A DNA stretch of 64,000 nucleotides from Escherichia phage phita32. The position numbers and the translations under genes are program-made. The stretch is from the sequence record PQ758395; one strand, given 5' to 3'. How positions within the stretch are numbered: the first letter of the stretch is position 1; each line of letters begins with the position of its first letter. Under the pieces are notes generated by a model. That model was not told the origin of the DNA, did not search any database, and saw only the letters and a list, made by a program, of their open reading frames with translations. Of the stretch, positions 6,602-62,556 are shown in pieces.

Positions 6602-9025
6602 ATGAGTATGTGGTCTTTCGATCTGGAGGCCTCCGGGCTTTTGGAAGATCTAGATCTTTATTATCACTGCGGTCTGTTTAAAGAGCTGAATAAGAACCGT
6701 TTTATGCTGTTCCTTCCTCTAAATGACCGCACACACTACTCCAAGGAGGATATAGAGAAGGCCAAGAACTTTATTCTGGCAAAGAAAACTCTTTATAAAG
6801 ATTTTGAAGTCCGCATAGCAGATTTTTCGGAGTTGGAAGGTTGGCTTACAGGCAATTCCGACTGGTCACCAACAGCTTTGAACTGCCATAACTGCTACAG
6901 TTATGACTTTATGCTGATGGAGAGATTATCCGGTATTCATTTTGATATGTTCCGTGATCCTAAATGCATGGGGACTATCAACGACCACCAGGTTAATCTG
7001 TTTGATACGTTGGCGATGAGCCGAATCTTGTGGCCTGATCGCCCTTTACCAAAAGGTTGTCCGGACTCTGTATTCAACCCGGTTACTAAGAAAATGCAGC
7101 CTGTTGGTCCTCACGGCCTTATGGCATGGGGCTACGCCCTTGGTAACCAGAAAGTTCAAATTGATGACTGGCGCGATCTTCCGTTGTGGAAGTATGTGGA
7201 TCGTGTATTCGAGGACGTTATCATCCAGGAGCTGCTCTGGAAAGAGCTGGTAGCGGAATCAAAAGGTGTATTCTACGGCAAATCTGACATGCAGAACTTT
7301 ATGTATGATCCTGCCAAAGAGAAGCCGAAAGGGTTCAAGAAGATCACCTGGAAGAACGCATTACGTCGAGGCATGCTGCAGCACTTCCTGATGGAGCTGC
7401 AGGCCCGTCAGGGTGTATACTTCGACATAGATGGAGCTATTGCTTTACGTGACCGTTGCGATGCGTGGATGAAAGAAATCGCTGATCGTGTTGAACCACA
7501 ACTACCTTTAAAAGAGCTGTCAATGTCTCAGCGGCCCAAGTTCCCTGAAAAGCCGTTTAACCAAGACGGGACAATCTCTAATAATGGTTGGAAATGGTTA
7601 AAAGATAAGCTTGGCTATCCTGTAGACATGAGCGCTTTAGAGTTCAAAGCCCCGCCTAAGCGAGCATTTACCTCTACAGGGGATGTCAGCAAGATGGGGA
7701 TAAAATGGTGTGAAGAGATGGGCTGCAAAGACCCCGATAAGATGGCTGATTTCTTGAGAGGCTATATTAAGGGTACCTCCACACCACAACCTTTACCTAA
7801 AGAGCTAATGGATCAGGCAATAAGTGATCTGCAGCAGAAGCGAATGCCTGACTGCAAGATACCTATGAAAATCGGCAATCAGGACGACATCAAGCGATAC
7901 CTAATCAGTGCTGGTTGGCTCCCAACAATGTGGAGAACTAAAGATGTAACTAAAGACAGCAAGAAGAAAGCTTTACCTGATGCAGATGTTGATGCACGAG
8001 TATATGCATACATGGACGAGCTTTTAGAGTCAGAGTATTGTGACCTGATTATCAACTTCTGGAACAAAACTGATGCTAAGTTTCAGACAACCGTGCACAA
8101 GTTCCGAAGCTTTCCTAACTCCGAAAGGATTAAAAAGGAAGTGTTCGGGAAAATACGTAGAAAAGCCAGGGCACTTATTACTTCTCCGCAACTGAAAGAT
8201 ACGTTTGGACACCTATGCCCAAATCTTGAAAAATTGAACGGAGAGATGGCTAAAGATATCGTCTTGTGGTTATCATTGCGAAACCGCAGATCGGTCCTTG
8301 ATCCAATCAAGGAGGATAAGGTTGATACTGGTCTTCTTAATCACCCACGTTTGAAGATTGACCATAAGCTTCCTGCTAAAAGCTCTGGATTAACAAACAC
8401 TTCCAGACAGAAACACAGTATTTGTGCAAACATGCCTAAACCATCTCCTAAAGTGGTTATGGGTAAAGAGATGCGTAGTCTGTGGGGTGTTCCTCCAGGA
8501 TACTTTGAGATCGGTATTGACGGGTCCAACTTAGAGCAGCTTATCGGGGCTTGGGGTGCCTTTGAGTTCGACAACGGCTTGTATTATGATGTTGTAAGTA
8601 ACGGAGACGCACACCAAAACAATGCTGAGGCATATACAAAAGTAGCAGGCAGAGAGGTGTCCCGTAACGACGGTAAACCTATCACGTATGGGGTTATGTA
8701 CGGGGCACAAAAAGATAAAGTTGCAGATATGCTGGACATCTCTCCAGAGTTGGGACAAAGGGTAATCGATGCACTCTGGGATGCCAACCCAGGTCTTAAG
8801 GGGCGCAAAGAGGATCTGGAGAAATTCTGGGAAGCAACAGGTAAGAAGTTTATCTACTCTTTTGATGGTCATGCTATCTGGACCAGATCTAAACACTCTT
8901 TACTTAATGCATACCAACAAAATGGCGGTGCATCGTTGTGTGACTTAGTTGGAATACTCATGCACCACCAGATGGTGAAGCGTGGGTGGTACGATGAAGG
9001 TGTTCGTCGTATTATTTATTACCAT
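6602..9025 (+). CDS. DNA polymerase, family A, exon 1 (3'-5' exo + palm motifs A and B)
   Basis: N-terminal FDLEASG Exo I-like motif; motif A YFEIGIDGSNLEQL; motif B RNDGKPITYGVMYGAQ; ORF runs 2 codons into intron before stop at 9031. Confidence 0.8.
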
Positions 9026-9301
9026 AAATAACATTGTGGCTTCATAGAGTAATCTATGTCGAATAACCTCTTTAACTGCGGGAAGCCTAAACCTTATGGC
9101 AAGGTAATCCGCAACGAAGCGCTCAAAAGAGCGAACGCTCAGAGGCCATTCCGAAAGGAAGTAGACCAGCAAGTGCGGTCGAAATGGGAGGATTCCTGTG
9201 GTTGCTTATTATAGGAATATGAGATGGTCCGATCCTACGTGAAAACGTATGGCTATGCACGTAATGGTGCGGGGTAGCTTAACGACCTACCTGAACTATT
9301 G
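9026..9301 (+). ncRNA. group I self-splicing intron (no ORF) in DNA polymerase gene
   Basis: Exon 1 ends in U (..UACCAU) pairing with intron GUGG guide at 9037-9040; intron ends in G 9301; P/Q/R/S-like core elements AACTGCGGGAAGC 9074-9086, TAATCCGCAACG 9105-9116, GCTCAGAGGCC 9137-9147, GAGATGGTCCGATCC 9221-9235; splicing restores motif C YHDEYQLQV. Confidence 0.6.
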
Positions 9302-9655
9302 GATGAGTACCAACTTCAAGTGCCTGACACACCGAAGTATAAGACTGTGTACACCTTCGACACAATTGAAGAACTGGAAGCATTTAAGGCAGAGCAGGAA
9401 GCCAAACTTCATGTGTTCGACGGTCATAAGTACAAAAAGGCACGCAAGGATGAGGACGGAAACGAAGTGGTTGACAGAGACGGAAACACGGTGTACGATC
9501 CTATCCTGAACGATGACGGAAAGCTTGAACTTATCTGGAGCCCTGTGGGTGAAATGGTGGTGCATTGCTTCTGGCAAGCTTCTAAAATGATGGGAGTCCC
9601 GTTCCAGATCACAGGTGAATACTTGTGTGGGGCTAATTGGGGTAGTTGCCATTGA
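9302..9655 (+). CDS. DNA polymerase, family A, exon 2 (motif C and C-terminus)
   Basis: Begins DEYQLQV (completes HDE motif C) and ends GANWGSCH, matching T7 pol / Pol I C-terminal signature; no start codon or SD of its own. Confidence 0.7.
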   Translation, partial: DEYQLQVPDTPKYKTVYTFDTIEELEAFKAEQEAKLHVFDGHKYKKARKDEDGNEVVDRDGNTVYDPILNDDGKLELIWSPVGEMVVHCFWQASKMMGVPFQITGEYLCGANWGSCH

Positions 9656-9666
9656 TCTGATAAGAG

Positions 9667-10323
9667 ATGTTTGCTATGGAAGAATGGAGAAAACTGGTTG
9701 GCAAGGAGGCCAACTATGAAGTTAGCAGCAAAGGAAGGATTAAAAGGCTGTCTTACCTGAGGAAGTACAGTAACCAAACAGGTAAAGTTACTTTCAAAGC
9801 TGTCCCTGACAGGATTTTAAAAGGTAGCGTAGACAGTAGCGGTTACATTCAAGTAAATGTGGATGGAAGATCGGAATTGCTTCACAGGTTAATTGCCGAG
9901 ACCTTTCTAGAGCCTCCTTCAAAAGAGCTTGTAGAGGAATGTAAGGCAGCAGGGCTGGACTATGTACCGATTAATCATAAAGACCATAACCGCCTAAACA
10001 ATGCTGCTGACAACCTTGAATGGGCCTCGCCTTCAAAAAATGCACAAGATGTGGACTACGATTACTGTAAAACAAGAGGTGAAAATTCATACTGTGCAAA
10101 ACTTAAAGAGCGAGATGTTGACGAAATATTAAAGCTTTCCAAAACAGGTATGTCGCAGCAAGCTATAGCAGATCTTTTCGGTGTTAATCAGATAACCATT
10201 TCCAATATCTTGACAGGAAGGAGTTGGGCATGGTACACTGGGATACCTAAAACCGCAAGGTGTAAAAACAAAAGGAAGAGATCCCCAAAAAGCATGTCCG
10301 AGCAAAATTTCTCGGTAAGCTGA
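9667..10323 (+). CDS. HNH homing endonuclease (NUMOD4 + HNH_3 + C-terminal HTH), free-standing
   Basis: EEWRKLVG..YEVSSKGRIKRL NUMOD4-like; INHKDHNRLNNAADNLEW HNH motif; C-terminal LSKTGMSQQAIADLFGVNQITISNIL helix-turn-helix. Confidence 0.8.
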   Translation: MFAMEEWRKLVGKEANYEVSSKGRIKRLSYLRKYSNQTGKVTFKAVPDRILKGSVDSSGYIQVNVDGRSELLHRLIAETFLEPPSKELVEECKAAGLDYVPINHKDHNRLNNAADNLEWASPSKNAQDVDYDYCKTRGENSYCAKLKERDVDEILKLSKTGMSQQAIADLFGVNQITISNILTGRSWAWYTGIPKTARCKNKRKRSPKSMSEQNFSVS

Positions 10324-13143: not shown

Positions 13144-13509
13144 ATGGAACAAATGAACGATCAAGCGTCGGTTGCGATGAACGAGCAAGAACAACCTCAA
13201 GAATTTTTCTTAGGGTTAAGTAAAGATCAAGTGTCTCTTTTGCTAGTGCTTTCTTCTTTCATGGGAAGACTTCAAGAGCTCACACAACAACCGGAGGCTG
13301 AACAATTATTTCAGGCTCTGCGTGAAGAAGAAAAATATCGTCGTTTGGACTATGCCTTAGGTTGGGTAGCTCAACAACGGGATATGCTGATGGCCCTCTC
13401 TGGGACCACAAGTTTTGCAATGGGCCTGTTGGCTCAAGTTCAGGACAAATTAATTCAAGCAGGGTTCGCACACACGGCAAGCACTAACGAAGAACAAGGA
13501 GACAAATAA
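13144..13509 (+). CDS. hypothetical protein
   Basis: ORF with SD; Gln/Glu-rich. Confidence 0.45.
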   Translation: MEQMNDQASVAMNEQEQPQEFFLGLSKDQVSLLLVLSSFMGRLQELTQQPEAEQLFQALREEEKYRRLDYALGWVAQQRDMLMALSGTTSFAMGLLAQVQDKLIQAGFAHTASTNEEQGDK

Positions 13510-14780
13510 TGAGCGTTATTCAACAATTCGCTAACCCAATGAATCCGCGTGAAACTGTTTTACTGGCTCACGGCATGATTAAACGTGTTAGCATCAAGCC
13601 TATCAAAGGTGCTGATCCTACAACAGGTATTAAAACCACTGTGTGGCAAGGTAAGAAAATTGAATCCAGCCACACCATCTCTTTACTGATTTCTGAACTG
13701 GATTCCTCTGATAACCTGCTTCAAGGTGGTGAAGAAGTCTGGATCAGCATGGGTGATAAGCTGCTTAAACCAGGTCATCAAGACTCTGTCTCTGTTAAGA
13801 TTGATGACAAGTGGGAAACCGTAACGCCAGGATGGATCGTAAATATCCCTTTGAAGGCAAACGAGCATAACGGTAAGACCTATTACAAGGGCTCACTGGC
13901 TAAGATGGTTAAGCTGGGTGCAGGAGAGGCTCCAGCAGCGACTCAGCAGCAAAAACAGCAACAAGGTGCACAATCACAAGGCCAGAAGCAGAAACCTCAG
14001 CAGAATGCCAATCAGGACGTTTTACGCATCTATGGTGATGTGACTCAGATTGTTGGCAACGTGGTTACTGTTAATGACCACAAGATTGGCGAAGGTGCTA
14101 TGGTTGTCACTGATGAGCAGCTTAAAGATCTGGTGGTAGGTGGTCGTGTTGCAGCCATTGTTGACAAAGACACCGGAAACATTATCAGTGGTTTCAAAGC
14201 CTATCCTCCTAAGGCAGAGAACGGCACTCAAGGCTCCGGTGGCAAGCGTAAATCCTCTTACGACCCTATCGGTGTGGAAACGGGGCATAGCATCAATGCG
14301 TTGCAGATCATCCTGGATCGCGGGTTTAAGGTAGACGACCCACTGGGCGTGGCTAAAACACTGCACGTAGTCACCATTGAGCTTAAGAAAGAGTATGCTC
14401 AAGCCACCAACCGAACTGAAGATGAAGTAGGTGCCAGTGTCGGTAATGCGGTGTTGAACGCTTGTCGCCGTATTGACAAGAAAACGAAAGTTGATGATTT
14501 TGCAGCGGCAATTACTGCAGAAGCAAAAGATGTCTTGACTAATCTGGCTGAGCCGTTGTACGATTGGATCAAGAACGGTGCTGGGTCAACTGACCATCAA
14601 GAACCTCAGGCTGCCAAACAGGAAGCAGCTCCACAGCAAAACACTGTAGACGCTCCTCCTGTAAATGATGAGGAAGATGACCCAATGGATCAGAATCCGG
14701 CGCAGTATGACTTCTGTGATGACATACCTTTCGCTCCGGTAGGTTTGCAATATGGCAAAAGTAGAATCCACGCATTGTAA
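13509..14780 (+). CDS. hypothetical protein with Gln-rich linker and SSB-like acidic DDIPF tip (possible ssDNA-binding/replication accessory protein)
   Basis: [20 protein letters not shown] low-complexity linker; acidic [22 protein letters not shown] near C-terminus resembling the E. coli SSB tip; ORF reads 18 aa past DDIPF into the next gene. Confidence 0.4.
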
Positions 14781-49250: not shown

Positions 49251-50222
49251 TCAGCAACCACAACTTCCGTAGTGCTTAACCCGTTCTATAACTTCCGCTT
49301 GCTTACCCTTATTGTAAGGACGGGAGTTAGGACTGGAAAGGTATCCAGACACACGTCGAATTACGCTGATCGTTCCCTCTTCATGGTTTCCACACTCTGG
49401 GCATACAAAGCCTTTAGCTGTTGCACTGAACTCACCAGAGAAACCACACTTGAGACATTTATCCACAGGCTGGTTGATACCAAAATACATAATGTGTTTA
49501 TATCCGAAATCAACAAGAGCTTCCAAAGCATCTAAGTTGTTTTTCAGATTTGGTGTCTCTACGTATCCGATGTTGCCACCAGAGGAGATCATAGCAAAAC
49601 CTTCCTCATACTCCCACTTATCAAAAGGAGAGCTATTGATCCATACTGGCTGATGGAAACTGTTGGTGAGATATTCATGCTCGTGCTTCAACACTTCAGG
49701 ATATTCACGATCCAGACAGGTTGCAGCTTTATAGCATAGACTCTCAGAAGGGGTGCCGTACAAGCTAAACGCTAGTCTACTTTCCTTCTTGTATCGCTCA
49801 CAAGCATCTCTCATGTGCTGAAGTATTCCAAGAGCTAAAGCCTTGTCACCCTCCCTGCCCAAAATCTGACAGGTTTCATACACACCAATATACCCAATAC
49901 TGATGGAAGCGTACCCGTCATAGAAGAGTTTATCAATACTCTCTTCAGGATCCAGGCGAGCAAGAGCGCCTTCACACCACATGATAGGGTTCTGCCCTGC
50001 CTTTGTTCCTTTTAGACGGTTAACCCTTACAAGGTGAGCCTCGTATGCAAGATCCAGGTATTCGTCAAGAACTGCAAAGAAATCAACACCTTCCGTTTTA
50101 GCTTTTGCCGCAATCATTGGCAGGTTAAGGCTAACAACGCCTAAGTTAAATCTGCCAAGGTATTTCTCCTCGCCTGTTACAGGGTCGCTATATTTCGATA
50201 AGAAACTTCTACACATTATGTT
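49251..50222 (-). CDS. nrdD: anaerobic ribonucleoside-triphosphate reductase NrdD, exon 3
   Basis: CRSFL..NLGVVSLNLP .. glycyl-radical RVSGYL and C-terminal Cys cluster, colinear with E. coli NrdD residues about 390-712. Confidence 0.8.
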   Translation of the reverse strand, partial: NIMCRSFLSKYSDPVTGEEKYLGRFNLGVVSLNLPMIAAKAKTEGVDFFAVLDEYLDLAYEAHLVRVNRLKGTKAGQNPIMWCEGALARLDPEESIDKLFYDGYASISIGYIGVYETCQILGREGDKALALGILQHMRDACERYKKESRLAFSLYGTPSESLCYKAATCLDREYPEVLKHEHEYLTNSFHQPVWINSSPFDKWEYEEGFAMISSGGNIGYVETPNLKNNLDALEALVDFGYKHIMYFGINQPVDKCLKCGFSGEFSATAKGFVCPECGNHEEGTISVIRRVSGYLSSPNSRPYNKGKQAEVIERVKHYGSCGC

Positions 50223-50993
50223 CAGGGTGGTTCGCAAGTCCACCCCCGCACCTTTACGTGCTGCTGCATGTTCCCATGCAGATCAGACTATATCTTCACA
50301 CTTAGTGTGTCTACCATTTCGAGTGTCATCGGCTTACACCCTACACCGCTACATTCATCACGGTTAGTCGTTAGGCATTTCGTAACAGAACTCGTAATCA
50401 TAGTTATTAGGCGCACCACGTTTCAGGATAGCAGATATTCTTTTTCTATCTACTCCTAAAACATCAGCACAACATCTCAGACTTTTAAAGTGGAAAACCT
50501 CACCAGTTAATTTGTTGGTGGCTTTCACACCGTGGCATCTTGTGTAAAAAGCATAACAGTTGTTGTTGTATCCTTCTTGCGTATTGTCTGGGCAAGCTCC
50601 CCACTCAAGGTTGTATACACTGTTATCTTTCCTGTTGTCCCCTTTGTGCTTAACATAGGGTAAATTGTCTGGATTTGGTAAGAACGCTTCAGCAACAAGT
50701 CTGTGAACCCTTAGGCAAACAGTCTTTTTGTTCTTGCGTATCCTAACAAGACGGTAACCTGTGTTTATCTCTTCCCACGAATGAATAATTCTTTCATTTT
50801 CGTAGCGGGTGCAATAAACATTGCCCATCTCGTCAATTTCATAACCTTCAAAATCACGAATTTGTTTTCTCATTTCAGGACTCCTCTTGGTCAGGAGTTC
50901 TGTTACGTTTAGCACGGGATTGTCCGTTCTGGAGTTTCCCCGTTTAGATAGATTTTACATGAGCAGTTATAGTTTACCCATGCTCGTTACTTT
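50223..50993 (-). mobile_element. group I intron 2 in nrdD carrying an HNH homing endonuclease gene
   Basis: NrdD frame breaks after KVTGSTDG and resumes at NIMCRSF with no start codon; upstream exon ends in U, intron ends in G (complement of 50223); junction uncertain by about 3 nt. Confidence 0.55.
50364..50915 (-). CDS. HNH homing endonuclease (intron-encoded)
   Basis: HNH_3 motif VKHKGDNRKDNSVYNLEW; C-terminal HTH SLRCCADVLGVDRKRISAIL. Confidence 0.8.
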   Translation of the reverse strand: MLNVTELLTKRSPEMRKQIRDFEGYEIDEMGNVYCTRYENERIIHSWEEINTGYRLVRIRKNKKTVCLRVHRLVAEAFLPNPDNLPYVKHKGDNRKDNSVYNLEWGACPDNTQEGYNNNCYAFYTRCHGVKATNKLTGEVFHFKSLRCCADVLGVDRKRISAILKRGAPNNYDYEFCYEMPND

Positions 50994-51275
50994 ACCATCT
51001 GTCGAGCCTGTCACTTTACGATTTAGTGGAACAGAAACAAAGTCAGGATAAATCCGCTCTGCAGAGCATTCCAGAGCTAATCGTTTCAAATCATAGTTAG
51101 GATCTCCAGGGTTCATGTTGACACCCTCTTCTAGGAAGAACAGCACTTTAGGGAACACAGGTGTGATACGTTCTTCACCAAGACCCATTTTGTGGACTTT
51201 CAAGTAATTTTTGGTAATCATTCTACCAAAGACCGAGGTATCCAGTCCTAAACTTAATGTGATGAATGGAGTCTG
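50994..51275 (-). CDS. nrdD: anaerobic ribonucleotide reductase NrdD, exon 2
   Basis: QTPFITLSLGLDTS..ITPVFPKVLFF..GDPNYDLKRLALECS colinear with E. coli NrdD residues about 296-390; no start codon. Confidence 0.7.
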
Positions 51276-52072
51276 CTGTCTCCTCCCTGTGTTTCCACAG
51301 GGCCAGACTATCTCTTACTCTACTTCAATAAGATAATAACCCTTTATTGTGAGATGCTTACCTTCGGCATTTCCTTCGATAGCCCTGTGAACGTTACCTA
51401 CGTTCAAATTTAAGGCTTTTGCACAGGCGTAGAGTGAAGGATATTCACCCACCAAGATTTTCCCTTTGTATGCCTGCACTTTCCTATAGCACTTACCTGG
51501 ACAAAGTCCTGTTCGGAAAGCATGTCTCTTATTATCTTCCGGCAAAACCCACTCTAGGTTAGACGGATGATCATTCAATGTATTGCCATCTTTATGATTC
51601 ACTTCCCAATTTTCAGGGTCTTCTGGGACATCTGGCAAACAATACAAGGCAACAACCCTTGAGGTTTGGATTCGAATCTTTTTACCTTTGTGGTTGAAAG
51701 AGTACATATAACGGCGTTTAACATGCTTATTACCTTTTCCATAACCTCCCCACAATATTGGGTGTAGCATTCCACGTTTTCCGTATACGTTTCCAACTTC
51801 ATCAATCACATAGTTTGATTCTTCACCATTAAGAATGATCTTTTTCATAGAGCCTCTCCATTTCGAAGTTAGTATTTCAACTAACCCCTACACTACTTGG
51901 TTCAGAAATGTTTGTCAAGCATCTCTGCCTTTCGTTAGTCGTTACAACCGTTCCAACTCCTGTAAGAACTAGTCACGGGATTGGCATAGCTTTCGCCTTA
52001 GCGTTCCCCGTTAGCCGGATTTACCGACCCCTCTTATGAGGTTAGGAGAGTTTTACAACGGCCAGTTTGTTA
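51276..52072 (-). mobile_element. group I intron 1 in nrdD carrying an HNH homing endonuclease gene
   Basis: Exon 1 ends ..AACGGU; intron starts UAAACAAACUGGCCGUUG, whose GCCGUU can pair with the exon end including the U-G wobble (P1); intron ends in G (complement of 51276); exon 2 resumes QTPF. Confidence 0.65.
51315..51848 (-). CDS. HNH homing endonuclease (intron-encoded)
   Basis: HNH_3 motif VNHKDGNTLNDHPSNLEW; C-terminal HTH; in same frame as exon 2, separated by a stop. Confidence 0.8.
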   Translation of the reverse strand: MKKIILNGEESNYVIDEVGNVYGKRGMLHPILWGGYGKGNKHVKRRYMYSFNHKGKKIRIQTSRVVALYCLPDVPEDPENWEVNHKDGNTLNDHPSNLEWVLPEDNKRHAFRTGLCPGKCYRKVQAYKGKILVGEYPSLYACAKALNLNVGNVHRAIEGNAEGKHLTIKGYYLIEVE

Positions 52073-52933
52073 ACCGTTGACAGAAGTTAACGTATTGATT
52101 TGATAGAGCAAAGTCTGCATGCTGTCAAATACGTCTTTATCTGTCATTTGCATTGCAACAGTCTCAGCATCTGGCAACCAATGTTCCTGGCAAAATTTAA
52201 GGTTCTTCTCATAGGTCGCTTCAGCATACTGTGCCAGATAATGATCAATATGGCTCATAGTCTGACCCCCATATTGAGCACTAGCTACTGCACTAGAGAT
52301 TTGGCTAAGGATTGTTGTTGCAACCCCTATTGACTTCGGCTTACTGACATGTGCGTTACCAATGTTGAATCCGTTTTCCAACATATCTGGATAATTTACC
52401 AAACAACAGTTTGTTAACGGACTGATCAAGTAGTCAAGATCATGCACATGGATGAAGCCTTTATTGTGCTCTTCTGAGACACGGTCTGGCAGGATCTGTG
52501 TTGATGCAAGGTGTTTGCTAAGGATGCCTGCAAGCAGGTCACGATGAGTGTGTACATGATTGGTAGGCTTATTTGCGTTTTCTTTTGTAAATTCATCACA
52601 AGTTCGATCCAAGAAGCCACTAATATCTGCAAGCAGTTTTCCACCTGCCTCTCTGTTATTATCTCTTGTCTGTCTATACTGGATGTATTCTCTGGCTGCA
52701 CATTTTAAACCCATATCCATAAGAGCATCTTCAACAAGGATATGGATATTTTTTACAGAGATCGTGTACTGGTCGGTTGGCAGATTGTTAGCAACAACTT
52801 CATTAACCGCACAAGCGATCCGGTAAGCTTCTTCTTCAGTATGTCCAGACTCAAGTAAGGCGGACTCTGCCGCCTTGATCACCTTAATTCCGTTATAGAA
52901 CTCTTCTCTACCGTCCCGTTTTACAACTTTCAC
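52073..52933 (-). CDS. nrdD: anaerobic ribonucleotide reductase NrdD, exon 1 (ATP-cone N-terminus)
   Basis: MKVVKRDGREEF ATP-cone start; ENANKPT..HRDLLAGI..HVHDLDY..NAHVSKPKSIG..YQINTLTSVNG colinear with E. coli NrdD residues 1-295. Confidence 0.8.
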
Positions 52934-60512: not shown

Positions 60513-61323
60513 ACCTAGTCTCCAAAATGTATTGTAGTTCTTTCTTACCTATACTCTTCATTCCGGCAGTCTTACCTGCTTCTTCTTGAAAAGAAGAATA
60601 GCATTCAGCAAACACTCTGTCAACACCGTCAACTAAAGATTTTATGAAATATGTTGATTCTTCAGATTTTGGGTCATCATCCCCCAATACTTTTCCAGCA
60701 TTATACCCAACACGTCTTACACAGAAGTCGTAGTCATCTGGTGTGCTAAAAGAAAATAACTTATTCTCTCCAATCTTTACAGGATCCCTATTGCACTCCT
60801 TTTTCTCCCAAATTTGGAAAACACATGGCACGTCATAAGGTTTGCCATTAAGTAAAAACGAGTTCTTAGGGCACCTTTCGCTGTAGACAAGGTGCATCGA
60901 CATGTCCAGTTTGTTTGCAAAAAATATTTTTTCAAATGTCCGTGGCAAGATGAAGGCTATAGCCCCTCCAGGCTCTAGCAATGATGCACAATGGTTAAAG
61001 AATTTGCAAGCTAAAGATGAATTCTTGCCAAAGGGTGGGTTACCTATGAAGACATCTGCCTTGGGATGCACCTCCAAGAAGTTTGCCTGAATGCACGGTG
61101 TTGGTCCTTCAAATTCAGGATCTGGTACTAAATCGTACGACAGTATCTCTGAAAATAGTTTTGAAAAAGAACCCCTTCCAGCAGAAGGCTCAACGTATGC
61201 ACAATTCCCATACTTATCTTTTACTTTACCAACAAGGTATTCTGCATACTCAGGGTTTGTGTAATATTTGTCGTTGGACTCTTTCTTACTCAAAGTGCCT
61301 CCAAAAGGAAAAGGGAGGCGCAA
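60475..61323 (-). CDS. DNA N6-adenine methyltransferase
   Basis: Motif I-like YVEPSAGRGSF and motif IV FIGNPPFG (NPPF). Confidence 0.7.
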   Translation of the reverse strand: MRLPFPFGGTLSKKESNDKYYTNPEYAEYLVGKVKDKYGNCAYVEPSAGRGSFSKLFSEILSYDLVPDPEFEGPTPCIQANFLEVHPKADVFIGNPPFGKNSSLACKFFNHCASLLEPGGAIAFILPRTFEKIFFANKLDMSMHLVYSERCPKNSFLLNGKPYDVPCVFQIWEKKECNRDPVKIGENKLFSFSTPDDYDFCVRRVGYNAGKVLGDDDPKSEESTYFIKSLVDGVDRVFAECYSSFQEEAGKTAGMKSIGKKELQYILETRYDQKHRLDQRTY

Positions 61324-61338
61324 GCCTCCCTATACTTG

Positions 61339-62322
61339 TTAGATTATCTGAATCAGGGTGTTTTTCATTTCTTCTCTGGTACGGATGTTGTTACGGTCAC
61401 GAACAACAGATCCACAACCTTCGCAGCGGTATGTTTTAAATGCACTCAGCTGAGTATACGCCAAAGCTTCTTCCTCGTGAAGGTGTTCTCCACCACAGCG
61501 TGGGCAACGAACTTTTGGCTCCTCATCCTGGTAGTACAATGACATGTTGGGGTGCTGCTTAGCAAACGGGCGCGCCAGCAAATACAGGCCTTCCAGAGAT
61601 AGGATATCACCAACATTGTACTCCCGCATCTGTTTAAACGCCTCAAGATCACCGTGAACACACTTGATCCACATTTCAAATGTGTGGTCAATCAGTTTCT
61701 GTCGGGCAAGTTGGAAGTATTTGCATGCATACTCCAAAGTGTTTGCATTCAAACGGAATGCCTTCTTGATCATTTTAAGGGTGTCAACCTCTTTGTATGG
61801 GCTTGTTGGCGGAAACCCGTGAAATGCAAATCGTTGGTTGGCCCACCCACAGTCAAAACCTGAATTGTGGGCTACTGCGACATCACATTTATCCAGATAA
61901 TACCACAAGTCCTGAATCAATTCGAGATCATTGTGAATATCCTCATCCCACATTTTGTAATCAGGAAGAGCGCAGTCAACCACACTAGGACTGTCTAACC
62001 ACTTACCTGCGAAAGTTAGCATATAGGGCATAATTTCAATACCGCAGGTTTGAATGTTGGTCTTATAGTGCCCAAAGAACCAGCCGTTTGTTGGGGATGT
62101 CTCTGTATCATACACCCAAACTTTAGCGCCTTTGTGTTCTTCAAGGAAGCGCTCCGTTGCCTCTCCTACAATCTCTGACATATTCTCTTGTGCACGTTTA
62201 AGCTGTAGTCGGATCCAGCTCTCACGTGACTCACGGCCTAAAAATTCACGGGCAATTTGTCTATTAGTGTATCCCTGTTGCTTTAGTGTTAAAATTTGCT
62301 CAAGAGTTAACTTTGTCATCAT
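61339..62322 (-). CDS. DEDD-type 3'-5' exonuclease with N-terminal HTH and C-terminal zinc ribbon
   Basis: Exo I VWVYDTET, Exo II VAVAHNSGFD; N-terminal LKQQGYTNRQIAREF HTH-like; C-terminal CPRCGG..CEGCG. Confidence 0.55.
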   Translation of the reverse strand: MMTKLTLEQILTLKQQGYTNRQIAREFLGRESRESWIRLQLKRAQENMSEIVGEATERFLEEHKGAKVWVYDTETSPTNGWFFGHYKTNIQTCGIEIMPYMLTFAGKWLDSPSVVDCALPDYKMWDEDIHNDLELIQDLWYYLDKCDVAVAHNSGFDCGWANQRFAFHGFPPTSPYKEVDTLKMIKKAFRLNANTLEYACKYFQLARQKLIDHTFEMWIKCVHGDLEAFKQMREYNVGDILSLEGLYLLARPFAKQHPNMSLYYQDEEPKVRCPRCGGEHLHEEEALAYTQLSAFKTYRCEGCGSVVRDRNNIRTREEMKNTLIQII

Positions 62323-62334
62323 CGTTAAGATTCC

Positions 62335-62556
62335 TTAGTAAAACTGAAGAATGTCTTTTAAAGCGAAGTCACGATATTCGCCCTTGTCTACATCAAAGGC
62401 ACGCATCAACCACTGCTCTTCTTTATGATACTCTGTAGAGCCAAACCATAAATTAGGCTCAGTAACGCAGCGATCTGCAACAACACCTTTCCAGTTACGG
62501 TATTTCATCCTGATCAGGACTGAGTCGCAAGGATTGAATACCTTTTTCATCCCCAT
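62335..62556 (-). CDS. hypothetical protein
   Basis: short ORF. Confidence 0.4.
   Translation of the reverse strand: MGMKKVFNPCDSVLIRMKYRNWKGVVADRCVTEPNLWFGSTEYHKEEQWLMRAFDVDKGEYRDFALKDILQFY

Follow-up and report, generated by a model that had tools for sequence, protein, structure and literature searches.

The gene located at positions 61339-62322 of the window (the whole stretch of DNA that was analysed, 64,000 nt from a Vequintavirus, an rV5-like coliphage) encodes a protein whose motifs and structure model indicate a DEDDy enzyme with a PolB-type exonuclease fold, not a DnaQ-type one, flanked by a predicted N-terminal HTH and a predicted C-terminal zinc ribbon. With about as much confidence as doubt, we propose that the product is a stand-alone metal-dependent 3'-5' DNA exonuclease of the PolB DEDDy type, which would act on intermediates of replication or recombination and/or on host DNA. 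Since a literature search for a characterised member of the family returned genome reports only, with no biochemical or genetic data found, its substrate and role are deduced only from the fold and the gene neighbourhood. The gene itself is ordinary in rV5-like E. coli phages, in which it is annotated.

The open reading frame was established to lie on the minus strand, a point on which the original prediction was silent. The features recognised in the gene and its flanks are the following:

62331-62336, minus strand: Shine-Dalgarno-like AAGGAA, 8 nt 5' of the ATG, read from the sequence
61339-62322, minus strand: complete coding sequence of 327 aa plus stop, with an ATG start, from the list of open reading frames
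62185-62322, minus strand: predicted tri-helical HTH, residues 1-46, from the AlphaFold (AF2) model and the family profile
62128-62184, minus strand: linker between HTH and core, residues 47-65, the rest of a long helix (31-62 in the AF2 model)
61555-62127, minus strand: DEDDy 3'-5' exonuclease domain, residues 66-256, RNase H-like and of the family-B polymerase type, from Foldseek and the Pfam matches of relatives
62101-62109, minus strand: Exo I, D72-T-E74, from the translation
61852-61869, minus strand: Exo II, H152-N-S-G-F-D157, from the translation
61606-61620, minus strand: Exo III, Y235-N-V-G-D239, in the YxxxD form, from the translation
61384-61515, minus strand: predicted C-terminal zinc ribbon, residues 270-313, from Cys conservation and the AF2 model
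61495-61506, minus strand: zinc ribbon knuckle C273-P-R-C276, from the translation
61414-61425, minus strand: zinc ribbon knuckle C300-E-G-C303, from the translation
61339-61383, minus strand: basic C-terminal tail (RTREEMKNTLIQII) and stop codon, from the translation
61312-61331, minus strand: hairpin resembling an intrinsic terminator (8 bp, 6 GC, then TTTTCCTTTT), directly 3' of the stop codon

A chance reading frame was ruled out by a match to the PHROG 403 profile that runs from end to end (E = 2.2e-110; query residues 2-326 against profile positions 2-320 of 321) and by the wide distribution of homologues. The hairpin is a probable end of the transcription unit or module boundary, and in phage EdH4 a 'terminator' feature is annotated in the corresponding region.

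The catalytic pattern is complete, with Exo I as DxE, Exo II as Nx2-3(F/Y)D and Exo III as Yx3D. Because Exo III takes the YxxxD form, the enzyme is assigned to the DEDDy and not to the DEDDh class; this third motif was absent from the original prediction. In an alignment of 159 homologues, D72, E74, D157, Y235, D239 and the four cysteines of the ribbon are each kept in 156-159 sequences. Residue by residue, D72 and E74 are each found in 157, with gaps in the other two (Exo I is also invariant in the homologue alignment A3), D157 in all 159, N153 in 154, H152 in 152, and Y235 and D239 in 158 each. By analogy with the proofreading domains of polymerases, a pair of catalytic metal ions would be coordinated in the predicted active site by D72, E74, D157 and D239, and the attacking water would be oriented by Y235.

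The AlphaFold model, built from a 141-sequence alignment, has a mean pLDDT of 94.9 and a pTM of 0.84, and superseded an earlier one built from 8 close sequences (pLDDT 66, weak Foldseek matches); the A3 search gave mostly members of a single divergent subclade whose ribbon is degenerate (A4), and this set was left out of the model. The best PDB matches found by Foldseek are the exonuclease domains of Pol epsilon, Pol alpha, archaeal PolB and the HSV-1 and ASFV polymerases; these extend over about 225-250 residues, with E-values between 1.6e-6 and 1e-4. PolB exonuclease domains lead the 49 PDB matches at E <= 1e-3, with a TM score normalised to the query of only about 0.42. The likeness to the exonuclease domains of family-B polymerases (PF03104, PF10108) comprises both the DEDDy catalytic set and the best structural matches, but unlike those polymerases the query has an HTH and a Cys4 ribbon and no polymerase domain, and the phages that encode family members use family-A and not family-B polymerases.

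Among the 141 relatives, PF13482 is matched by 131, PF10108 by 78 and PF03104 by 40. The query itself gave no PF13482 match at E <= 1 in the Pfam search, whereas a homologue of 45% identity (P0006) has a precomputed one, so that the query's putative membership of PF13482 comes via relatives, by transitivity only. The prototype of this family (RNase_H_2) is Bacillus subtilis MrfB (YprB), presented in PMC11194089 as a 3'-5' DNA exonuclease whose metal-dependent activity was shown by experiment and which takes part in DNA repair alongside a helicase. As described in that source, MrfB combines a DEDDh site with a C-terminal TPR domain, whereas the query has a DEDDy site, an HTH and a zinc ribbon.

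With E. coli DnaQ (Pol III epsilon) and RNase T, which the original prediction had taken as its point of comparison, the query has the RNase H-like DEDD superfamily in common. Their Exo III is of the Hx4D (DEDDh) form, and the query is without the tail by which DnaQ binds Pol III alpha. The score against PF00929 (RNase_T) is 22.5 bits for a Pfam cut-off of 24, the NCBIfam DnaQ models NF004316 and TIGR01406 score 26.1 and 22.9 against cut-offs of 196 and 222.7, and local similarity to 1j53 around Exo II is weak (E = 0.012). An identity as DnaQ/epsilon was therefore ruled out by the Exo III motif together with scores below thresholds, and the earlier comparison was off the mark.

The N-terminal module is modelled as a three-helix fold (helices 7-15, 20-28 and 31-62, pLDDT 83-96), in which helix 2 of the HTH is NRQIAREF, helix 3 is SRESWIRLQLKRAQ, and the turn exceeds that of most relatives by 3 residues; the linker that follows (residues 47-65) is weakly conserved across the family. 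A profile of the family's N-termini matches Sleeping Beauty PAI (3.4e-6) and Tn3 resolvase (7.3e-6) in the PDB, as well as gamma-delta resolvase and the HTH domains of NarL/RhlR. Of 36 relatives compared with HTH models of Pfam, 17 match HTH_38, 15 match HTH_23 and 7 match HTH_7, and the query alone remains below their cut-offs (HTH_38, E = 0.0032-0.034; HTH_7, E = 0.009-0.09). By these matches the module would belong to the resolvase/transposase/LuxR-type HTHs and is predicted to bind DNA. In other family members the HTH is replaced by an InsA-type zinc ribbon or by NUMOD1, and such an exchange of N-terminal DNA-binding modules is consistent with a targeting module that can be swapped. About 130 of the 159 aligned members have some extension at the N-terminus, in many cases an HTH, and this end of the protein changes far more quickly in evolution than the core does. 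In 18 of the 159 (about 11%), phiKMV-like ones included, Exo I is preceded by fewer than 10 residues, so the module is dispensable for core activity. We infer that the HTH is an optional, lineage-variable element through which the enzyme is recruited to DNA or a partner protein.

At the other end of the protein, the four ribbon cysteines are conserved, in order, in 158, 156, 157 and 156 of the 159 homologues. The model places three strands here (281-289, 294-300 and 306-312, pLDDT 97-98), with CPRC preceding the first two strands and CEGC at the turn into the third. The tail after the last cysteine has 20-30 residues in 147 of the 159 homologues. The Cys4 ribbon, for which zinc binding is predicted, would be an integral element of the protein, either structural or engaged in binding nucleic acid or a partner. 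Matches of the query to the zinc-ribbon models of Pfam are many, weak and all sub-threshold.

The original prediction had read Exo I and Exo II motifs (DTE and HNSGFD in the translation), an N-terminal HTH-like segment and a C-terminal CPRC..CEGC ribbon from the sequence, and each of these readings holds: the catalytic residues are near-invariant, and the exonuclease core, the HTH helices and the ribbon strands are all seen in the model. The three-module architecture is real, and not that of an ordinary DnaQ-like domain without DNA-binding or zinc modules. The domain HMM searches it had suggested were only partly in line with this, since PHROG 403 was matched over its whole length and the query's own HTH and zinc-ribbon Pfam matches were sub-threshold, for which reason the confirmation of these two modules draws on the family and the model. 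Where it erred was in calling the combination of domains unusual. Judged from sequence, the HTH-exonuclease-ribbon layout is the standard one of a very large and routinely annotated phage family, PHROG 403, which comprises 4,722 clusters at 50% identity. Homologues were detected in 1,526 phage records, and proteins 99-100% identical to the query in 109 Vequintavirus records. The same layout is found in the PHROG 403 members DrSchubert bas50_0198, ICP1 gp189 and the YprB-like protein Q0E5Y0 of LKA1, whose BFVD model superposes on that of the query with a TM score of 0.75 and an rmsd of 1.7 A. The query is a member of PHROG 403 and presents no structural difference from it; what is unsupported is the kinship with DnaQ and the subunit role that the family's name implies.

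As regards gene neighbourhood, the order FEN 5'-3' exonuclease, endonuclease VII and exonuclease gene is kept in the window and its relatives and recurs in phiKMV-like podophages and in TC6, and ThyX and Nrd genes are located downstream in ICP1, TC6, PS24 and Antha. To these were added 80 IMG/VR loci, gathered with a 15-sequence alignment, whose neighbouring genes were classed by seeded phmmer/hmmsearch, this family detection being used instead of BLAST-level clustering, which was too fragmented. Upstream on the same strand, FEN is found in 24 of the 80 loci (directly adjacent in 8), ligase in 13 and PolA in 12, and endonuclease VII occurs in 9 loci, mostly upstream; downstream there are a dNMP-kinase-like gene in 8, ThyX in 14 and NrdA in 16. 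The gene is the last of a replication/recombination nuclease module, just 5' of nucleotide-synthesis genes. In actinophages the homologue is positioned after the lysis cassette, outside any replication module, and therefore the role may differ between lineages. The synteny may also reflect shared ancestry of the replication module instead of functional coupling.

From the fold and the gene neighbourhood, it is reasonable to suppose that the enzyme would cooperate with the 5'-3' flap exonuclease and endonuclease VII encoded nearby and trim 3' ends or flaps of replication and recombination intermediates, and/or would degrade nicked host DNA to dNMPs that feed the nucleotide-synthesis genes immediately downstream. 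Some family members carry inserted inteins, and since inteins tend to be found in important enzymes of replication and repair we count them toward this explanation. The phage polymerase would probably not require the enzyme as a subunit for its proofreading.

That last role, in which the protein would proofread in trans for the phage family-A polymerase, perhaps docking through its ribbon or HTH in a manner comparable to Pol III epsilon, is nevertheless the alternative that survives best, although we regard it as unlikely. Its fold is that of a polymerase proofreading domain, 'DNA polymerase exonuclease subunit' is a label used by PHROG 403 and many GenBank records, and the gene belongs to the replication module of many phages, with PolA encoded 3-11 genes upstream in the 12 loci mentioned above. 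This count was obtained with the polymerase domain only and with the target proteins excluded; full-length PolA seeds had given 97 proteins in the 80 loci, an artefact in which the target family itself was caught through the shared exonuclease fold. Moreover, roughly half of the neighbouring PolAs, that of the window among them, have exchanged the Tyr of Exo III for Arg, which leaves room for an intrinsic proofreader that may be impaired and complemented in trans. Against this, all four exonuclease carboxylates (Exo I DxE, Exo II D and Exo III D) are kept by the co-encoded PolAs in 12 of 12 loci and by the window's own PolA, the Tyr is also kept in half of the co-encoded ones, and one co-encoded PolA (locus L004) matches PF01612 outright. 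A polymerase-subunit role is doubtful because the co-encoded PolAs retain exonuclease motifs of their own, and we conclude that the protein probably does not have it. In the window the spliced PolA gene, made up of positions 6602-9025 and about 9302-9655, lies 52 kb away on the opposite strand, and no paralogy between the target and this PolA was detected by BLASTP. The mycobacteriophage Juniper1, in which a family member is present, has no annotated DNA polymerase within the 23.4-57.3 kb portion that the analysis covered. The enzyme is, furthermore, not of the DnaQ type by its motifs and RNase_T score, and the 'subunit' label is traceable only to homology in genome announcements.

A DNA-targeted nuclease, as the original prediction had suggested, in which the HTH would recognise a specific sequence or structure, for example at the phage origin or genome ends, in host DNA or in a competing element, and deliver the exonuclease there, appears quite improbable. 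It agrees with an N-terminal module drawn from classes of sequence-specific DNA-binding domains, with the fast evolution of this region relative to the core, and with its exchange in relatives for InsA-type zinc ribbons or NUMOD1, which are used by transposases and homing endonucleases. However, the module is missing from about one in nine aligned members, no cognate site is known, such HTHs also act as protein-protein adaptors, and what an exonuclease requires is a free 3' end and not a sequence.

Very improbable, finally, is an RNA or defence-related substrate (RNA primers or 3' RNA tails, ssDNA or cDNA, or oligonucleotide signals degraded by an anti-defence nuclease), to which point the 'ribonuclease H' labels of some homologue records, the many RNases among DEDD enzymes, a weak PADLOC match to a CRISPR-associated DEDDh model (E = 3.2e-6) and the targeting of Vequintavirinae by cDNA-producing DRT systems, but against which stand motifs and a fold of DNA polymerase proofreading domains and not of DEDDh RNases, a context of DNA replication and nucleotide metabolism genes, and a literature search in which no escape-mutant or anti-defence report on the gene was found. 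The PADLOC search gave this generic DEDDh match only, leaving a defence-system homologue unsupported, and a DRT10 preprint was dismissed as a link to the gene, as it concerns a different gene of Vequintavirinae.

For the window itself the importance of the gene is very small, since over a hundred sequenced genomes of rV5-like phages contain it in annotated form. More broadly, the case bears on annotation quality, given that the name of a family of about 4,700 clusters, distributed across many groups of tailed phages, appears to be wrong twice. 'DnaQ-like 3'-5' exonuclease', as the family is also labelled in PHROG 403 and GenBank, fits badly because the enzyme is of the PolB-type DEDDy class with an obligatory zinc ribbon, and 'DNA polymerase exonuclease subunit' is doubtful, and probably misleading, because the usual neighbours are polymerases with exonuclease motifs of their own. 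We also consider, as a speculative and rather unlikely extension, that the family consists of self-contained PolB-derived exonucleases, not polymerase accessories, whose exchangeable DNA-binding head (HTH, InsA-type ribbon or NUMOD1) and invariant zinc ribbon would recruit them to particular DNA ends or sites. If this were true, many tailed phages would possess a targeted 3'-5' DNA degradation, directed for example at host DNA, the DNA of rival elements or defence-generated ssDNA, that has been overlooked because of the misleading name 'DnaQ-like'.

The minus-strand open reading frame at 61339-62322 coincides exactly, stop codon included, with the gene of the original prediction; it starts with ATG and encodes 327 aa. 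The Exo I and Exo II motifs and the ribbon cysteines named in that prediction are all present on translation, together with an Exo III motif absent from its list.

Features of the exonuclease gene and of its translation
AAGGAA, 8 nt upstream of the ATG, minus strand: ribosome-binding site
D72-T-E74: Exo I
H152-N-S-G-F-D157: Exo II
Y235-N-V-G-D239: Exo III
C273-P-R-C276 and C300-E-G-C303: zinc ribbon knuckles
61312-61331, minus strand: terminator-like hairpin (8 bp, 6 GC, T-run), directly 3' of the stop codon

The hairpin separates the gene from the downstream N6-adenine methyltransferase gene and likely marks a transcription-unit boundary within a long minus-strand gene array.

Searched alone against Pfam, the protein had only sub-threshold matches: to RNase_T (22.5 bits, cut-off 24), to HTH_38/HTH_7 (residues 7-27) and, over residues 265-320, to a dozen zinc-ribbon models. 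The AlphaFold2 model (141-sequence alignment; mean pLDDT 94.9, pTM 0.84) shows helices at 7-15, 20-28 and 31-62 followed by an alpha/beta core; beyond the first CxxC come three strands (281-289, 294-300 and 306-312). Foldseek comparison of this model with the PDB returned 49 matches at E <= 1e-3. Family-B polymerases supplied the top ones with their exonuclease domains, namely Pol epsilon of yeast and human, Pol alpha, Thermococcus/KOD PolB and the polymerases of HSV-1 and ASFV; DnaQ-type domains and RNase T ranked below. Of 141 relatives searched against Pfam, 131 match PF13482, 78 match PF10108 (PolB-exo-like), 75 RNase_T, 40 PolB_exo1 and 22 PolA_exo1. The Foldseek ranking and the Pfam matches of the relatives therefore identify a DEDDy, polymerase-type exonuclease. 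A DEDDh identity, as DnaQ or RNase T, was rejected given the YxxxD form of Exo III and the scores against NCBIfam DnaQ models (about 26 bits, cut-offs near 200); the protein lacks the defining features of DnaQ and is not a plain DnaQ-like domain devoid of DNA-binding or zinc modules. The best match among viral models was the LKA1 'YprB ribonuclease H-like' protein (E = 3.9e-30, TM 0.75, rmsd 1.7 A).

The architecture, originally regarded as unusual, is instead the norm for a very large and already annotated phage family, PHROG 403, to which the protein belongs (profile match over residues 2-326, E = 2.2e-110). Homologues were found by tblastn in 1,526 of 50,697 phage records, including phages of Escherichia, Pseudomonas, Vibrio, Klebsiella, Acinetobacter and Mycobacterium, and a profile run against 1.84 billion cluster representatives retrieved 4,722 of them at E <= 1e-3, of which 1,799 reached E <= 1e-30. 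Over its full length, the final 6 kb of the window is 98% identical to genomes of rV5-like E. coli myophages (Vequintavirus, such as DrSchubert, EdH4 and nomo). The gene copy is near-identical to deposited sequences. When the query is aligned to 158 cluster representatives from the profile search, D72, E74, D157, Y235 and D239 are kept in 157-159 of the 159 sequences and the four ribbon cysteines in 156-158, as confirmed in a further family alignment (A3). Because both sets are near-invariant, exonuclease and zinc ribbon form a single conserved unit, and the ribbon is not an add-on peculiar to this phage. The family also includes a large metagenomic subclade (alignment A4: P0159-P0270, P0009 and P0082) whose ribbon is degenerate (consensus CPxSG ... 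CxDSxH), only the first cysteine of each knuckle being retained. Four members of 500-590 aa (P0125, P0137, P0097 and P0108) have insertions within their exonuclease domain, close to Exo II or a short way downstream of it, and P0125 and P0137 match intein/Hint or LAGLIDADG models.

The minus strand of the window and of its relatives carries, in order, a 5'-exonuclease (FEN), two small ORFs, a 209-aa ORF, endonuclease VII (EndoVII), a 73-aa ORF, the exonuclease gene, the terminator-like hairpin, the N6-adenine methyltransferase, a dNMP-kinase-like P-loop protein, ThyX, and then NrdAB and NrdDG. The order FEN, EndoVII, exonuclease also occurs in phiKMV-like podophages, FEN lies upstream in TC6, and ThyX and/or Nrd genes follow shortly downstream in ICP1 (gp189), TC6, PS24 and Antha.

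Neighbours of the exonuclease gene in 80 IMG/VR loci encoding family members
FEN 5'-3' exonuclease: 24 loci, always upstream on the same strand, directly adjacent in 8
Ligase: 13 loci, upstream
EndoVII: 9 loci, mostly upstream
dNMP-kinase-like gene: 8 loci, downstream
ThyX: 14 loci, downstream
NrdA: 16 loci, downstream

These conserved neighbours therefore place the gene at the end of a replication/recombination nuclease module, bordering a nucleotide-synthesis module. The role may differ between lineages, since distant actinophage homologues (L007, Juniper1 gp35; L010, Arthrobacter phage Yeezus gp45) lie where the late operon ends, immediately behind the lysis cassette.

That family members are trans-acting proofreaders is doubtful. 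The DNA polymerase of the window (PolA; 6602-9031, plus strand), encoded 52 kb from the exonuclease gene, is a T7-like family-A enzyme (E = 6e-15 to T7 gp5) that keeps Exo I (FDLEAS versus SDIEAN in gp5) and Exo II (HNCYSYD versus HNGHKYD), while in Exo III the Asp is kept and the Tyr is replaced by Arg (DRVFEDV versus DYNVQDV). A PolA polymerase domain lies 3-11 genes upstream of the family member in 12 of the 80 loci, and all 12 PolAs have an intact D-x-E and keep the aspartates of both Exo II and Exo III; the adjacent PolA of L004 matches PF01612 directly (E = 2.3e-9). In the temperate mycobacteriophage Juniper1, no DNA polymerase is annotated in the 23.4-57.3 kb non-structural region. These observations argue against an obligatory proofreading subunit, and the Juniper1 result, with the placement of the actinophage genes, suggests a different or polymerase-independent role in those lineages. 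About half of the neighbouring PolAs keep the Exo III Tyr and about half carry the Arg variant 'HRCExDV'; it is this variant that keeps the idea alive in reduced form. The variant marks a subclade of T7-like phage PolAs (L032, L034, L056, L084 and L090, and the window's PolA at residues about 195-205) with all four carboxylates kept.

Other elements were observed in the window. A group I intron (9016-9251, plus strand; Rfam RF00028, 63.1 bits, E = 1.2e-13) lies within the PolA gene, precisely at motif C: the first exon, in the ORF at 6602-9031, ends '...IIYYH', the frame resumes with 'DEYQLQV...' at about 9302-9655, and an HNH-type homing-endonuclease-like ORF (9667-10323) lies downstream. The anaerobic ribonucleotide reductase gene nrdD (49251-52933, minus strand), uninterrupted in phage DrSchubert, is in three pieces (52070-52933, 50967-51221 and 49251-50243), with HNH-like ORFs between them (51315-51848 and 50364-50915) and sub-threshold group I intron matches at 50264-50369 (35.3 bits) and 51285-51572 (28.8 bits). 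The 423-aa protein encoded at 13509-14780 (plus strand; PHROG 4477, unknown function) has a Q-rich low-complexity middle and an acidic C-terminal 'DFCDDIPF' resembling the SSB C-terminal tip; it may be the counterpart of the SSB-like Bas52_0087 of a Vequintavirinae phage, a reported trigger of the DRT10 defence system.

At least 45 residues precede Exo I in about 130 of the 159 aligned proteins, many of them showing the pattern G-x-S-x-R-x-I-A...K-S-T-V-x-D-Y-L. A profile of 36 family N-termini matched, among solved structures, the Sleeping Beauty transposase PAI domain (E = 3.4e-6) and the HTHs of Tn3 resolvase (7.3e-6), RhlR (3.2e-5), NarL (8.4e-5) and Gamma-delta resolvase (6.4e-4); HTH_38 was matched by 17 of the 36, HTH_23 by 15 and HTH_7 by 7. 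The HTH turn is three residues longer in the rV5-like clade, and in other members an InsA-like CxxC...CxxC module or NUMOD1 replaces the HTH. Since fewer than 10 residues precede Exo I in 18 of the 159, these are essentially without the module; the 257-aa member of the phiKMV-like phage Mora-5 is similarly short. The HTH would be an optional recruiting module, and a sequence-targeted nuclease is unlikely.

A stand-alone enzyme, to which we give about an even chance, would trim 3' ends or flaps of replication and recombination intermediates and/or degrade nicked host DNA to dNMPs. It would act by two-metal 3'-5' hydrolysis at DNA 3' ends, as family-B polymerase proofreading domains do, although it lacks a polymerase domain, and the zinc ribbon would serve as an integral element, for structure or for binding. 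PF13482 is shared, by transitivity only, with B. subtilis MrfB, a proven 3'-5' DNA repair exonuclease of DEDDh type and with a TPR domain (PMC11194089), whereas the window protein is DEDDy. An RNA-directed or anti-defence role is very improbable.

In the literature search, 'DNA polymerase exonuclease subunit' appeared only as a genome annotation, in five phage characterisation papers, and no functional study of any family member was found. As a useful side result, the common annotation as a DnaQ-like polymerase subunit is probably inaccurate.
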